DNA of 64,000 nt from a virus: the IMG/VR virus record IMGVR_UViG_3300029286_000029, one strand, 5' to 3'. The notes under the pieces were generated by a model. That model worked only from the letters and a program-made list of their open reading frames with translations. It made no database searches and was not told the DNA's origin. Position 1 is the stretch's first letter, and the number at the start of each line of letters is the position of its first letter. The translations under genes and the position numbers were made by a program. Positions 4,136 through 49,555 of the stretch are shown here, one piece after another.

Positions 4136-5617
4136 TTAATATCCAGCCGGAGGCATATAATTTTGATAATTCAATTGTGTCATTGGTTTATCACTTAAAA
4201 CCTTGAATCCTTGTAAGGCAATCGCCGTCGCAAAAATAGCATCATCATGATATCCGTCCATCGCAACCATATTATTAGCATCGTTAAAAATAAAAACCGT
4301 CATTTCATCTACTGTCTCTTTTGAATGTAAAGTAATGGTATCTTCCCTTGTACTTTGCTCAAATTCGTCAATTAAAATTGGCCGGGTTAATTTAGTTGTC
4401 TTCCAACCTAATTTGTCACTCCAAGGATTTCCAATTGTATCAAATCTTGCAGGACGAAAATACAAAGAAGGATAAAGCATTTGCTTAAGAATATTTAACA
4501 CAACACTTCCGTGCGCCTCTGCTTCTACCACCATCAGGGCGTTATTGTACTTTCTTCCCCACTTGTCCAGGACTTTTGCAAATTTATCTGGGGCAATATG
4601 ACCACGCCAAAAAGCGACCTCTTCCCCACTATTCCTATCTAAAATTACAGCAACGGCATAGTCACCCCCGGTTACGCCCTCTGAACAGTCAGCCCCAAGA
4701 ACATAAAAATGACCATTCTCTGGTGGTTTATAAATTCTAAATCCTTCTTCTTCCCGAACAATATGTTCAGATCCATCAGCCATCTTTACTGAACTACCTA
4801 CCTTTAAAACTCTCTTCCTTTGCAAGTTAATTGCTTCCTGTGTAAAAACAGATCGTCCAGAAATTAAAAACTCAAGAGCATAGTTGTTATTAAACTTACG
4901 CTCATTATTCATTCTTCTCTTAATTATCTCTATTTCTGATTCAGAATAATTCCACCACCACCCATATTCTTTTTTTATATAATCGTTATCAGAAACCCAC
5001 ATTCGATGGAAATAATCTCCCACAGCACCGGGAGAAGATTCGATAATTATTTTCCCGTTTACAGGAACAGACGCCTCGAGAGTCACCATTTTTTCTTCTG
5101 TTTTATCCCAGAAAGGCACCTCAGTCAACAAGGCATAATTTATTGTATATCCTCGACCAACGTTCTCAGTAGAAGGAAGAACTAAAATTTTAGAATCCAC
5201 CTTCGGAAAAGAAATTTCATACTTAGAGTTGTAATGGATCGTTGGTTTTATAGCGTCTGGAGTTGTCCTATAAAAAGTTTTAATTTTGTCCAAAAGTTCA
5301 GCCGTTAAGTCGTTGTTGTACCCAACTAACGCTGTCGTTACACCAGCAGTAGTAATTGTTTTATGATAAAGAAATCCAGTAACGGCAGTTGAAAATCCGA
5401 TCTGCCGCGCTTTCATTATAATAATACGGTTATTTCTTTGAATCGTATTAAAAATATCAAGTTGCGCAGGTTTAAGAATAAAGGGAACTAAACCCTTTCC
5501 TTCTTTTCCTTTGATTCTACAAAAATTCTCTATGTAGTATCTAGGATCAGCCAGTTGTTCAATTCCAGCATTAGTCATAAAGTCCTCTTGATTCTTTATT
5601 AGCCTTTTCTTTAGCAA
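4136..5617 (-). CDS. terL: Terminase large subunit (ATPase plus nuclease). The annotated start is TTG; an alternative ATG start at 5578 gives MTNAGIEQL.
   Basis: A Walker-A-like motif KARQIGFSTAV is typical of TerL. The C-terminal RNase H-like nuclease region carries acidic motifs (VLGADCSEG, MVVEAEAHG, DGYHDD). Confidence 0.85.
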   Translation of the reverse strand: MLKKRLIKNQEDFMTNAGIEQLADPRYYIENFCRIKGKEGKGLVPFILKPAQLDIFNTIQRNNRIIIMKARQIGFSTAVTGFLYHKTITTAGVTTALVGYNNDLTAELLDKIKTFYRTTPDAIKPTIHYNSKYEISFPKVDSKILVLPSTENVGRGYTINYALLTEVPFWDKTEEKMVTLEASVPVNGKIIIESSPGAVGDYFHRMWVSDNDYIKKEYGWWWNYSESEIEIIKRRMNNERKFNNNYALEFLISGRSVFTQEAINLQRKRVLKVGSSVKMADGSEHIVREEEGFRIYKPPENGHFYVLGADCSEGVTGGDYAVAVILDRNSGEEVAFWRGHIAPDKFAKVLDKWGRKYNNALMVVEAEAHGSVVLNILKQMLYPSLYFRPARFDTIGNPWSDKLGWKTTKLTRPILIDEFEQSTREDTITLHSKETVDEMTVFIFNDANNMVAMDGYHDDAIFATAIALQGFKVLSDKPMTQLNYQNYMPPAGY

Positions 5618-25993: not shown

Positions 25994-26021
25994 AAGCCAG
26001 CCTTATAAGCTGGCTTTTTTT
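25994..26021. terminator. Rho-independent terminator: stem AAGCCAGC/GCTGGCTT plus a T7 tract.
   Basis: 8-bp stem, 7-nt loop and a T-run. It is the second unit of a duplicated terminator plus TTGACTGAAAAAAT element. Confidence 0.55.
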
Positions 26022-26601: not shown

Positions 26602-26892
26602 TTAATTATTAAGAATCAAAATCACGTCTGAAGAATTAACTAACAAATAATCTTTACCATCTAATTTTACAATAGTCCCGTAATTAAACATAATTTTATT
26701 ACCGACGGCAACTGAATTTATGATATAAGAGCCATTATCGGTCACTCTTCCCGGTCCCGCTGCCACCACCACACCTATTTTTATCTCACCAGGGTTGTCA
26801 TCAGACTTAGAAATGACTAATCCACTACCCCGAACTTCAGTCTCGTCAACACTAACCAAAACACGATCACCGAGAAGTTTTATATTGTCCAT
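26602..26892 (-). CDS. groS: Co-chaperonin GroES.
   Basis: Classic GroES sequence: IKLLGDRVLV...ETEVRGSGLVI...GEIKIGVVVAAGPGR. Length is 96 aa. Confidence 0.85.
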   Translation of the reverse strand: MDNIKLLGDRVLVSVDETEVRGSGLVISKSDDNPGEIKIGVVVAAGPGRVTDNGSYIINSVAVGNKIMFNYGTIVKLDGKDYLLVNSSDVILILNN

Positions 26893-28014: not shown

Positions 28015-28090
28015 TGGCTGGCAAGGTAGGACTCGGACCTACAACCAATTCCTTAACAGGGAATCGCTCTGCCAATTGAGCTACTTGCCA
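28015..28090 (-). tRNA. tRNA-Asn (anticodon GTT) with an encoded CCA.
   Basis: Acceptor pairs TGGCAAG with CTTGCCA. D-arm is GCTC..GAGC. Anticodon stem-loop is ATTCC-CTGTTAA-GGAAT, identical to the E. coli Asn loop. T-arm is GTAGG-TCCGAGT-CCTAC, with discriminator G followed by CCA. Confidence 0.75.
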
Positions 28091-28094
28091 TCAA

Positions 28095-28518
28095 AAATAC
28101 TAATTAAGAGATGAACAGTAGGGGAGTTTCCTGATGTCGCCGTAACGCGAAGTTACGAAACTCGTCTTGTGTTGTGGACAATTACCTCCACTCAATCAGG
28201 ACGATACCCCCACTATCCACTTCTTTTTTCAACGACCTCAAGAACACATTACTGGGAGCAAATATTGCCGAGTCTATTTTAGGAGACAGAAAAACCTAAA
28301 TACTCGTATAGTCAATTTGCATGTTAGGGCCTTCAGCTCATGGAAGCAGCCCCGCCTTGAAAAATATGTGAGTCCCCCGACTCATCCATGATTAAGGGCG
28401 TCTCTTTCCGCCATCCCAGAATCTGTTCTCAAAACAATCGCGGGGGTTTAACAAATAGTGTCTTGGAGCAAGAGCACTCACCGACTTATTCTTATATCTC
28501 GCCGGGTCCCCACGATCT
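28095..28518 (-). ncRNA. Candidate non-coding RNA or long leader (about 420 nt) transcribed from a consensus promoter. No ORF is present and it is GC-richer than its surroundings.
   Basis: An ORF-free region lies between the groEL stop and tRNA-Asn. A perfect TTGACA-N16-TATAAT promoter on the minus strand points into it. Local hairpins include GAGTC-CCCC-GACTC. The class of RNA was not identified. Confidence 0.3.
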
Positions 28519-28524
28519 ACTTCC

Positions 28525-28552
28525 ATTATATACCCATTATCTTACTTGTCAA
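28525..28552 (-). promoter_or_regulatory. Consensus sigma70-type promoter, TTGACA-N16-TATAAT (minus strand), inside the palindrome CACTTGACAAGT.
   Basis: -35 at 28547-28552 and -10 at 28525-28530, both read as the reverse complement. It belongs to the CTTGACAAGT family. Confidence 0.6.
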
Positions 28553-28561
28553 GTGAAAAGC

Positions 28562-30181
28562 TTACTTCACTCCGTTTGGTAGAACTTGTGGCTCATCAGC
28601 CATGGCCGTTTGCATTGTCAAAAGTATGCTACCAGCCGACACCGCATTTTCTACCGCCGAACGAGTAACCTTAACTGGATCAATTATACCAGCGTTTATC
28701 AGGTCGTCCACATACACATTTTTAAGAGCGTCATAACCCCCACCCTCCTTCATTTCTTTAACCTTTGACACCACCATCGAACCGTCTCCTAGTCCGCAAT
28801 TAATAGCGATATTCGTCAGGGGCGATTCAAGAGCCAAAGCTAGGATCTCAAAGCCGATCTTTTCATCGGAAGTCAAGTTAGAATTGGCCGTCAGAGCCTC
28901 TAGAACCCTCTTAGACGCACGAACAAGGGTCGCACCGCCTCCTGGCACTATTCCCTCTTCAATCGCCGCTTTTACGGCCGCTACCGCATCTTCAATTTTG
29001 AGTTTTAGATAACGACTTTCGGTTTCCGTGGCGGCACCGACCTTGATCACGGCAACACCACCCGACAAACGAGCAATCCTTTCCTCAATTTTCAATTTAT
29101 CATGTTTAGACTCCTGTGTTTCCACTTCTTTTTTAGCCGACGCAATCCGAGTATTAATTTCTTCTGGATAACCTTTGCCACCAACTATCGTCGTCTTTTC
29201 TCGCTTGGACACCACCCGATCAGCTGTTCCCAAGTCAGCAAATTTAACCGTCTCCAGTTTCCGACCCAATTCACTAGAAATAAAAGTGGCGCCAGTCAAA
29301 ATGGCAATATCTTCCAAGTAATCTTTCTTTCGTAAGCCAAATCCAGGTGCTTTAATACAAAGAGTCGTAAAGATTCCTCGTAATTTATTGACGATAGCGG
29401 TTTGCAACGCTTCGCCAACCACATCTTCCGAAATAATAACCAATTCTTTACCGCCATTTTGCATCACTTCTTCTATGATTCTAGCTAAATGTTCAGCCGA
29501 ACCGATTTTTAAATCCGTTACTAGAATTTTTACATTTTTGCATTCCGCTTCCAATCTTTCTGCATCCGTTACCATATAAGGCGAAATAAACCCCTTGTCA
29601 AATTCCATACCTTGGCTTACTTCGGTCGTAATACCAGTGGTAGGAGACTCTTCAATAGTAATAACGCCATCCGTACCCATTTTGGCGATAGTATCAGCAA
29701 TCAACTTACCAATCTCTTCTGATTCGGCGGAAATGGTCGCTACTTGAACAGTCTCATCGCCTTCCTTGATTGGTTTGGCTATTGACTTCAGATATTCCAT
29801 CACGACTTTGGACGCCTTTTCAATTCCATTGCGGATTCCCACAGCGTTTACACCCACCGCAATTTTCTTCATACCTTCAGCGACAATAGCCTGAGCCAAG
29901 ACGACAGAGGTTGTCGTCCCGTCTCCTGCGGCATCATTCGTTTTTTGCGCCACTTCCTTAGCAATGCCACACCCCATATTTTGTATCGGGTCTTTCAAGA
30001 CGACTTCCCGGGCAATTGTTACACCGTCGTTAGTGATTTGAGGACCGCCATATCCTTTATCGAAGACCACGTTGCGACCACCTGGTCCGATTGTTACTCT
30101 TACAGCATCACCAACTGCGTCTACACCAACTTTTAATTCCTTACGAGCTTCGTCGCCAAATTTTATGATCTTATGTGACAT
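28562..30181 (-). CDS. groL: Chaperonin GroEL (Hsp60), 539 aa.
   Basis: Unambiguous GroEL sequence: DAVRVTIGPGGRNVV, GDGTTTSVVLAQAI, equatorial, apical and intermediate domains are present, and the C-terminus reads VVSKV. Confidence 0.95.
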   Translation of the reverse strand: MSHKIIKFGDEARKELKVGVDAVGDAVRVTIGPGGRNVVFDKGYGGPQITNDGVTIAREVVLKDPIQNMGCGIAKEVAQKTNDAAGDGTTTSVVLAQAIVAEGMKKIAVGVNAVGIRNGIEKASKVVMEYLKSIAKPIKEGDETVQVATISAESEEIGKLIADTIAKMGTDGVITIEESPTTGITTEVSQGMEFDKGFISPYMVTDAERLEAECKNVKILVTDLKIGSAEHLARIIEEVMQNGGKELVIISEDVVGEALQTAIVNKLRGIFTTLCIKAPGFGLRKKDYLEDIAILTGATFISSELGRKLETVKFADLGTADRVVSKREKTTIVGGKGYPEEINTRIASAKKEVETQESKHDKLKIEERIARLSGGVAVIKVGAATETESRYLKLKIEDAVAAVKAAIEEGIVPGGGATLVRASKRVLEALTANSNLTSDEKIGFEILALALESPLTNIAINCGLGDGSMVVSKVKEMKEGGGYDALKNVYVDDLINAGIIDPVKVTRSAVENAVSAGSILLTMQTAMADEPQVLPNGVK

Positions 30182-33415: not shown

Positions 33416-33937
33416 TCAAGAAGTATGAAACCAGTTATAATATATATCAGTCTCCCCGCCCTTTTTAGGCCAATCTGAGTGAATAATGTTAAGTAATAAT
33501 CCAAGTTTCTTTCGTTGCCATGCATAAATCAACCTAAAGGTACGACCATTAAAATCCTCAAAAGGATGCACATCTTCAAATTTAATGTGCATATCTTGAG
33601 TAAATTTATTAGGTTTTTTTAATGTCGCTTTACTGGGATTGTTAACTTCAAAACATATATCTTCTATACGTTTTTCAATATCTTGGATACTAAGAAATAC
33701 CTTTCTCTTCCCACCAATCCATACATCGCACTCACGCCACTTACCAGCAATACGTGGATTAATATTCCGGGCTAGTAACATATGAACAGCCAAAATCGTT
33801 CCCGGTGTAATAACTGGTTGTTTAGCAAGATAAGCCCACGCTTTATAAGCATCAGCTAATGCTTCTTTGCCATAAACCTGCTCAATGGCGTTGCTCTCTT
33901 TCAAGAACTTTAACATTTCGGGTTTGTAATAATACAT
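33416..33937 (-). CDS. Fic/Doc-family domain protein with a non-canonical motif (HPFEDFNGRTFR).
   Basis: Fic motif HPF.[DE]GNGR..R has G replaced by F. An upstream ESNAIEQV segment resembles the Fic S..IEG motif. Confidence 0.55.
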   Translation of the reverse strand: MYYYKPEMLKFLKESNAIEQVYGKEALADAYKAWAYLAKQPVITPGTILAVHMLLARNINPRIAGKWRECDVWIGGKRKVFLSIQDIEKRIEDICFEVNNPSKATLKKPNKFTQDMHIKFEDVHPFEDFNGRTFRLIYAWQRKKLGLLLNIIHSDWPKKGGETDIYYNWFHTS

Positions 33938-40580: not shown

Positions 40581-40608
40581 AGTATACACCCGCCTTTTTA
40601 CTTGTCAA
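40581..40608 (-). promoter_or_regulatory. Promoter TTGACA-N16-TATACT (minus strand) within GCTTGACAAGTAAAAAGG. A second half-palindrome GACAAGT is adjacent.
   Basis: -35 at 40603-40608 and -10 at 40581-40586, both reverse complement. It lies upstream of gene 40113..40511. Confidence 0.55.
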
Positions 40609-40626
40609 GCGACAAGTTGTTTAATT

Positions 40627-49507: not shown

Positions 49508-49527
49508 AGTGTAAATCCGCTTTTCAC

Positions 49528-49555
49528 TTGACAAGTGATATATCGGGTATATACT
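49528..49555 (+). promoter_or_regulatory. Promoter TTGACA-N16-TATACT within GCTTTTCACTTGACAAGT. Its upstream 18 nt are identical to the reverse complement of the 28.5-kb promoter.
   Basis: -35 at 49528-49533 and -10 at 49550-49555, upstream of the gene starting at 49618. Confidence 0.55.

Follow-up and report, generated by a model that had tools for sequence, protein, structure and literature searches.

A conserved RNA structure downstream of groEL in a group of phages, a candidate family of structured non-coding RNA

The locus between groEL and tRNA-Asn

We analysed virus DNA of 64,000 nucleotides (nt), the IMG/VR record IMGVR_UViG_3300029286_000029, which at its full length is called "the window" in the following. 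On the minus strand of the window, the interval between groEL and a tRNA-Asn gene comprises a promoter and about 430 nt downstream of it without a conserved open reading frame (ORF). A preliminary description of this interval, made from the sequence alone, had proposed that it encodes a dedicated phage non-coding RNA, and had recommended a search against Rfam and a comparison with related phages. Our analysis supports this proposal: the structured RNA of the interval is conserved in 11 related phages and exhibits covariation among them. The features of the locus are listed below with window coordinates and lengths in nt, base pairs (bp) or amino acids (aa). The three structured domains are designated D1, D2 and D3.

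28562..30181, minus strand: groEL (539 aa, Pfam Cpn60_TCP1), stop codon TAA at 28564-28562, the conserved upstream neighbour of the RNA
28542..28560, minus strand: extended promoter block CTTTTCACTTGACAAGTAA, holding the -35 hexamer TTGACA at 28552-28547
28525..28530, minus strand: -10 hexamer TATAAT, 16 nt after the -35 hexamer
28433..28521, minus strand: D1, a three-way junction (covariance model score 59.4 bits, E about 1e-12)
28517-28508 with 28445-28436, minus strand: helix P1 of D1
28505-28501 with 28485-28481, minus strand: helix P2 of D1, with an A-rich 15-nt loop
28478-28457, minus strand: helix P3 of D1
28456-28446, minus strand: junction strand J3/1 of D1, UAUUUGUUAAA
28241..28428, minus strand: D2, a multi-branched domain homologous to positions 4752-4962 of the related phage locus L089
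28359..28384, minus strand: terminator-like hairpin UGAGUCGGGGGACUCA followed by CAUAUUUUUC, inside D2, from a terminator scan
28106..28225, minus strand: D3, a 14-bp closing helix around an inner helix and three hairpins
28015..28090, minus strand: tRNA-Asn (anticodon GTT) with encoded CCA, 15 nt past D3 (ARAGORN; Rfam score 67.6 bits)
26602..26892, minus strand: groES (Cpn10, 96 aa, Pfam Cpn10), near the distal end of the operon

The interval had initially been described as GC-richer than its flanks and as ORF-free. With a GC content of 0.43-0.46, it is richer than the downstream sequence (0.25-0.37), but not richer than groEL upstream (0.42-0.51). The list of ORFs contains a 44-aa sense ORF (28392-28526), the ATG of which lies within the -10 hexamer, as well as a 64-aa and a 74-aa ORF in antisense orientation, so that the interval is not literally free of ORFs. 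None of these is conserved, however. A six-frame blastp comparison with 10 homologous intervals (113-471 nt) revealed no conserved translation, the best match (E = 0.005) extending over 19 aa at the promoter. The fold of the full interval of about 430 nt is more stable than those of all 100 shuffled sequences (z = -4.05).

A conserved three-way junction

Relatives of the locus were reached through GroEL homologues (58-72% identity), which led to their contigs, and through sequence-pattern scans. Eleven distinct related phage loci share the layout (L001/L066, L002/L073, L018/L069, L067, L071, L072, L088, L089, L090, L091/L153 and L094). D1 directly follows the promoter in the window and in these 11 relatives, 10 of which have the same promoter, and is also present in two contigs of bacteria of the candidate phyla radiation (CPR). 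The distance from the promoter end to P1 is 4-13 nt. A small internal loop interrupts helix P1, which comprises about 12 bp. P2 (5-6 bp) closes an A-rich loop of 11-15 nt, which reads GAAUAAnCAAUA in most members. P3 has at least 4 bp and is capped by a GAAA tetraloop in about half of the members. The junction strand J3/1, with the conserved sequence YUGUUAAAC, leads back to P1. D1 exhibits an aptamer-like fold with invariant junction nucleotides, and the minimum-free-energy fold of the window sequence matches the consensus.

The sample consists of 14 sequences, from one phage clade plus the two bacterial contigs. RNAalifold predicts the junction from an unguided MAFFT alignment of 13 sequences, with compensatory changes (both sides altered) at 17 of the 21 pairs. 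In this alignment 92.5% of the cells are paired, against 71.1% in column-preserving shuffles, and none of 500 shuffles matches the observed values on any measure. Shuffle statistics ignore phylogeny; slide controls preserve it. When the 3' partners were moved by one to three columns, the pairing of D1 dropped to 33-53%. A model-guided alignment of all 14 sequences, which leans towards the model by construction, gives 93.8% paired cells and a covariation score of 0.71 versus 0.24. Conservation in related phages, as the preliminary description had suggested examining it, is thus positive.

The covariance model of D1 (80 positions) finds one copy per locus, with scores from 45 to 87 bits. As a specificity control, we searched 719 kb of unrelated viral DNA in which the promoter core and the junction 9-mer occur correctly spaced; the model found one true member and no false one. 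The reverse strand scores 23 bits versus 79, and G-U pairs are conserved in D1. The conserved G-U pairs and the strand-asymmetric score indicate that the selected molecule is the minus-strand RNA rather than a DNA element.

Two subtypes of D1 can be distinguished (alignment A6): one has a P2 loop ending in AAUAAACAAUA together with the junction sequence UUUUG, the other a loop ending in AAUAAUCAAUA together with AUCUG. Each subtype comprises one bacterial copy and several phage copies. The subtype covariation fits a putative two-base tertiary pair between loop and junction (A:U to U:A), but shared ancestry could account for it equally well. Alignment columns 46 and 69 also co-vary (U:U, A:A or G:A).

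Promoter

The -35 hexamer TTGACA starts ten bases past the groEL stop codon and is separated by a 16-nt spacer from the -10 hexamer TATAAT. From sigma-70 geometry, transcription would start at about 28520-28517, some 7 nt after the -10 hexamer. In a scan for consensus promoters this site scores 12/12, the runner-up between 25 and 32 kb scoring 10/12. It is also the sole perfect TTGACA-N15-18-TATAAT site of the window (mean of 0.11 in shuffled sequences). The initial characterization of this site as a textbook promoter is borne out by these numbers.

The 19-nt promoter block, which includes the inverted repeat ACTTG-A-CAAGT at the -35 region, occurs three times in the window at up to two mismatches (0.04 expected). 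The two further copies are the following.

40598-40616, minus strand: promoter block copy CTTGTCGCTTGACAAGTAA, preceding a protein-coding gene
49520-49538, plus strand: promoter block copy CTTTTCACTTGACAAGTGA, preceding a protein-coding gene

Each of them is accompanied by a GTATACT -10 box and then by a leader of about 70-90 nt. Because the block is reused in front of protein-coding genes, it is a genuine phage promoter and is not specific to the RNA. From their sequences, the three copies together define a putative phage promoter family. An inverted repeat CTTG-A-CAAG spans the -35 region in every copy, and might be an operator. In 10 of the 11 relatives, the promoter TTYAC-TTGACAAGTAA-N7-8-GTATAMT is found directly upstream of the RNA, with the -10 box being either GTATACT or GTATAAT at an unchanged position.

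Domains D2 and D3

The base of D2 is closed by GAACA/UGUUC, followed by the internal loop GAUU/UAAUG and by CUGGGA/UCCCAG. This arrangement, a 5-bp helix, a 4x5 internal loop and a 6-bp helix, is recognised in eight phages. In an alignment of these eight D2 bases, 94% of the cells are paired and 8 of 11 pairs show compensatory changes, while slid controls reach 65% at most. As the segments were picked by eye, this statistic is weaker evidence than the D1 result. Over its whole length the window D2 aligns with that of L089, and 13 of the 32 consensus pairs are compensatory between these two sequences. D2 varies in size from a 45-nt hairpin up to about 200 nt, and is absent in two relatives, L067 and L002, which have D1 only. 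Through such optional peripheral domains the length of the RNA ranges from 90 to 430 nt among members.

A hairpin within the interval had been noticed in the preliminary description, and is present as GAGUC-GGGG-GACUC at 28383-28370 on the minus strand, with a run of U residues after it. The position of this D2 hairpin is kept in L089; the U-run exists in the window only. The hairpin is probably structural, and at most a leaky terminator. If it terminated transcription partially, an RNA of about 160 nt (D1 and the first part of D2) would be expected beside the full-length species. By eye, an 11-nt tetraloop receptor and a UAA/GAN motif can be seen inside D2; they are not conserved across members and serve as leads only.

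Folded alone, D3 has a z-score of -5.81, and none of 200 shuffled sequences is as stable. No homologue of D3 was found by MAFFT/RNAalifold comparison with the second domains of L001, L088 and L090, or by blastn and nhmmer against all loci. D3 may be specific to this phage lineage, or the sampling may be too thin. A resemblance by eye between the D3 closing helix and the terminal helix P0 of the bacterial copies (see below) was not substantiated, and was dropped.

Gene order in the related phages

The related phages share the gene order MerR-like gene, SNF2 helicase, groEL, RNA, one to three small or MucR-like ORFs, and groES. The separation of groEL and groES pointed out for the window is therefore real and typical of the phage group, in which this gene order is conserved, rather than peculiar to one genome. 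In L094, nothing but the RNA and a single small ORF comes between the two genes. The first gene downstream of the RNA differs: it is a 42-aa ORF, a 70-aa ORF, a MucR-like gene, an ORF of 76-168 aa, or a tRNA. The spacers between the RNA and the start codons are AU-rich and unstructured, and contain no conserved terminator. In some relatives the RNA locus is near replication genes.

In the window, the tRNA-Asn gene is uninterrupted and intact. No tRNA was found after the RNA in any of the 11 relatives. Since the RNA is kept there without the tRNA, it is not a mere tRNA leader; what this phage adds is the tRNA and D3. The alternative originally put forward, a tRNA precursor with a long leader, accordingly fails as a general explanation. 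Group I introns are frequent in the tRNA-Asn genes of Patescibacteria (PMC13011429). A phage supplying an intron-free tRNA-Asn to a host with intron-bearing tRNA-Asn genes would be of interest.

Past tRNA-Asn, the order of genes is grx (Pfam Glutaredoxin), a MucR-like gene (weak ROS_MUCR match), a 110-aa ORF, groES and an 83-aa ORF. As judged from the sequence, the operon through groES appears to be driven by the RNA promoter. The next terminator-like sites of the minus strand are at 26017 and 25934. The terminator scan revealed no terminator after groEL, and co-transcription of groEL with the downstream genes is possible.

In L088, an inserted homing-endonuclease ORF separates the groEL stop codon from the RNA promoter. 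This 186-aa ORF (L088 4610-5170) has a weak NUMOD3 match. A 176-aa Endonuclease_7 ORF (L069 2456-2986) is located directly upstream of groEL in another relative. The borders of groEL seem to be insertion hot spots for free-standing homing-endonuclease-like ORFs.

Several other observations were made at these loci. The gap between groEL and groES in L094 (3489-3962; GroEL 71% identical) contains just the RNA (D1 and a small D2), an ORF of about 57 aa encoding a hydrophobic product, a strong terminator (CCCCCUACCCAC...GUGGGCGGGGG, then UAUUU) and, ahead of groES, another promoter-like site, TATATAAT. ARAGORN calls a tRNA-Trp at L090 6742-6816 with its anticodon at position 36, for which the Rfam tRNA model is silent at E<=1; this may be an atypical or false tRNA. 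About 5 kb upstream of the RNA and in the same orientation, the window encodes a Fic/DOC-family protein (173 aa, 33419-33937, minus strand; Pfam E = 3e-8; motif HPFEDFNGRTFR), possibly a host-modifying phage enzyme. The GroEL sequence of the window is also found on an ENA metagenome contig. The window has a match in the ENA assembly ERZ27250602; relatives occur in ERZ27250635, ERZ27247780, ERZ28612979 and several SRR runs.

The pattern scans added few members. The pattern GTGGGG...TTGTTAAACCCCC applied to IMG/VR found L001 and a chance match inside a coding region (L007). A promoter 16-mer pattern matched 22 loci, the real ones being L001/L006 and L018. An overly strict pattern used on metagenomes matched 37 loci, two of them real and both duplicates of known members. 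A loose pattern of promoter and J3/1 gave 83 loci with three real ones, namely the known L006 and L018, and L153, apparently the L091 phage again. A pattern of the P3 loop and J3/1 returned two chance matches (14 bits each), and a host-type sequence pattern returned none.

Copies in bacterial contigs

Scanning species-representative bacterial genomes yielded 13 pattern matches, of which two are real (L086 and L083). L086 (86 bits) is on a 16.5-kb metagenome-assembled contig of Candidatus Zambryskibacteria. This contig is clearly chromosomal, as it carries genes for peptide deformylase (def), Met-tRNA formyltransferase (fmt), a ribosome hibernation factor (hpf), an S49 peptidase and VanY. The contig with L083 (84 bits) was binned with Saccharibacteria, but at 3 kb it is too short for reliable binning. 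In both bacterial copies, an 11-bp terminal helix P0, with one compensatory change between L086 and L083, encloses D1 plus one or two small hairpins. The z-scores of their folds are -6.75 and -3.77. Phage versions are without P0.

Immediately upstream of the D1 copy in L086 (7417-7542, minus strand), we identified a LOOT RNA (RF03000), with a score of 79 bits versus a gathering threshold of 46.4. A terminator-like hairpin is all that separates the two RNAs; L083 ends too early for comparison. LOOT and the D1 RNA may be functionally linked. As a terminator precedes the bacterial copies, they do not lie between co-transcribed genes. Neither of the proteins encoded downstream of the bacterial copies has a Pfam match, and the one in L086 exhibits no similarity to the MucR-like protein of the window.

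The nearest named relatives of the phage GroEL are from CPR bacteria (Paceibacterota, Taylorbacteria; about 60% identity). The D1 copies on CPR contigs, together with the CPR-like GroEL, suggest that the phage most likely infects CPR/Patescibacteria, and that the phage RNA most likely derives from a small RNA of these bacteria.

Searches against known RNA families

The Rfam search spans transfer-messenger RNA (tmRNA), RNase P RNA, 6S RNA, group I introns, signal recognition particle RNA, GOLLD, ROOL, HEARO, raiA, riboswitches and small ribozymes. With Rfam 15 at gathering thresholds, the whole window contains four tRNAs and nothing else. At E<=10, a region of 801 nt gave the tRNA plus an 18-bit match to Fibrobacter-1 on the opposite strand (gathering score 77.9). 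No match to the element was obtained in eight relatives at E<=1; on the two bacterial loci only LOOT was matched, beside the element. ARAGORN found no tmRNA in the window or the relatives. When the window interval and the L001 RNA were compared by blastn with the deposited phage genomes of INPHARED, there were tRNA matches or none. The Infernal search recommended at the outset, with tmRNA, RNase P, 6S and group I models in particular, therefore leaves the element without a matching family.

Two candidates were considered separately and rejected. The conserved regions of a diverged CPR-type RNase P RNA (PMC8172020) are absent from the element, there is no weak match to RF00010, and the host copy spans just 140 nt or so. 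Against a tRNA-Asn group I intron (PMC13011429) stand the intact tRNA and the failure of every intron model to match. The RNA family is absent from Rfam and apparently undescribed; the 8,495 candidate RNAs from IMG/VR of PMC10690425 were not compared, and since four family members are in IMG/VR, the D1 core is possibly among those motifs.

Interpretation

The reading that we tentatively prefer, at somewhat less than even chances, is that the interval encodes a large, structured non-coding RNA, stable and acting in trans. The transcript would begin at about 28518 with its 5' end buried in helix P1; the RNA has its own promoter and a structured body of the kind found in stand-alone small RNAs. 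RNase P processes the 5' ends of tRNAs, and on this basis the 3' end of the upstream RNA can be placed. Cleavage by RNase P at the 5' end of tRNA-Asn (28090/28091) would free a discrete RNA of about 430 nt. This RNA would then act in trans as the phage version of a host small RNA. Its invariant single-stranded elements in D1 would most likely bind a conserved host component, a protein or the translation or transcription machinery, with D2 and D3 as peripheral scaffolding domains. We favour action in trans because the first downstream gene varies among the phages and between the two bacterial contigs, and because, in this phage, excision of the tRNA would sever the RNA from all of the mRNA downstream. 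Moreover, the host form is closed by a terminal helix, as are stand-alone stable RNAs, and optional peripheral domains make its size variable, a trait of other large stable RNAs as well.

Several observations weigh against a stable trans-acting RNA. No relative has an intrinsic terminator past the RNA. In most of them, including the D1-only loci L067 and L002, an ORF begins 15-40 nt past the last helix, a layout like that of a 5' untranslated region, and each bacterial copy is likewise followed, after 40-60 nt, by a same-strand ORF. Phage and host share no conserved partner protein beside the RNA. For D3, which has no homologue, the support is thermodynamic. Finally, the sample of 14 sequences is small, and their relatedness inflates the shuffle-based statistics.

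The lack of a terminator, the closely following same-strand ORFs and the ORFs behind the bacterial copies also speak for a different reading, which is doubtful and yet to be taken seriously: D1, with or without D2, would be a cis-acting 5' leader, regulatory or stabilising, of the operon ending in groES. The forms considered are a riboswitch-like or protein-binding leader, an antitermination RNA of the HK022 put type, and a stabiliser against 5'-end-dependent RNases. In 10 of 11 phage loci, D1 starts just a few nucleotides from the predicted transcription start, the D1-only versions in L067 and L002 resemble ordinary 5' untranslated regions of about 110 nt, and the terminator-like hairpin in the window D2 could in principle act as an attenuator. 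However, the U-run of this hairpin is not conserved, neither an alternative pairing nor an expression platform is evident, and with no other operon terminator until 26017 there is little to antiterminate. The association with a consistent gene expected of a leader was not observed, the first downstream gene being conserved neither in the phages nor in the two bacterial contigs, and in the window D1 and the first ORF are set apart by the excisable tRNA and a further 330 nt of structure. It is improbable, in turn, that D1 is a self-cleaving or catalytic element, a new class of ribozyme processing a polycistronic transcript between groEL and the downstream genes. The compact three-way junction with its invariant junction strand, the loops that could dock and the GNRA tetraloop of many members would suit such an element, the architecture presumably resembling that of small ribozymes, and it lies between potentially co-transcribed genes with no terminator after groEL. 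But no Rfam ribozyme matches and no conserved candidate for a cleavage site was found; the RNA has its own promoter, which makes processing of read-through transcripts unnecessary, and the bacterial copies are preceded by a terminator.

That the interval is a mere leader of the tRNA-Asn precursor, or the remnant of a decayed intron or pseudogene without its own function, is very improbable. The tRNA follows on the same strand with no promoter in between, and Patescibacteria are known for introns in this tRNA gene (PMC13011429). Yet 11 relatives keep D1 without an adjacent tRNA, compensatory changes reveal selection on the structure, the tRNA is intact, and no group I model matches. Hardly credible is a DNA-level element (an operator, origin or packaging site) or an artefact of chance or composition. 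The inverted repeat at the -35 region could bind a regulator, and replication genes are nearby in some relatives, but the conserved G-U pairs, the strand asymmetry of the model score, the absence of false matches in 719 kb and the fact that all shuffle and slide controls are exceeded argue against it.

Beyond a stable trans-acting phage RNA, one may speculate, with considerable doubt, that D1 is the core of an unrecognised class of structured RNA of CPR/Patescibacteria, adjacent to LOOT on the one host chromosome examined, that was captured by phages and elaborated into an RNA machine as long as 430 nt. Such a machine would be more than a simple regulator, for example a ribozyme, an assembly made of RNA alone, or the RNA component of a host complex which the phage replaces or hijacks.

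CPR/Patescibacteria represent a large share of bacterial diversity; hardly any of these hosts or their phages have been cultured, and only a small number of non-coding RNAs has been described for the bacteria. An RNA supported by covariation and probably highly expressed, shared by CPR chromosomes and a clade of phages carrying groEL and groES, provides a handle on their interaction. It is a candidate addition to the few large structured RNAs of bacteria and phages with open functions (such as GOLLD, ROOL, OLE and raiA), and the 80-position covariance model is a ready search model for the family.

Comparison with known systems

GOLLD and ROOL RNAs often adjoin tRNA genes. Like the RNA described here, they are large multi-domain RNAs of phages and prophages, with a variable periphery around a conserved core and an open function (PMC5737381, PMC12286853). 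There is no similarity in sequence or structure (cmscan negative), and the present RNA differs in its length of 90-430 nt, its 80-nt three-way-junction core, its place behind groEL and its apparent CPR hosts. LOOT (RF03000), next to the D1 copy in the Zambryskibacteria contig, is likewise an orphan small RNA motif; it differs in structure, and neither the window nor any of the phage relatives gave a match to it.

The HK022 put antitermination RNA is promoter-proximal and consists of two stem-loops. The locus of the window resembles it in that a structured RNA right after a strong phage promoter heads an operon, but here extra domains accompany a three-way junction, there are no terminators downstream to be overridden, and bacterial copies exist. 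The stable RNAs C and D of phage T4 ("species 1 and 2") are transcribed together with the T4 tRNA cluster, and enzymes of tRNA maturation release them. A stable phage RNA in one precursor with a tRNA is predicted here too, although the linkage to a tRNA is seen in one phage only and the RNA family exists independently of tRNAs. Phages may also carry copies of host housekeeping RNAs, such as tmRNA or tRNAs. The D1 homologues on the bacterial contigs L086 and L083 (84-86 bits) suggest a similar relationship, with the differences that the host RNA is in this case an uncharacterised one, and that the phage forms drop P0 and add D2 and D3.

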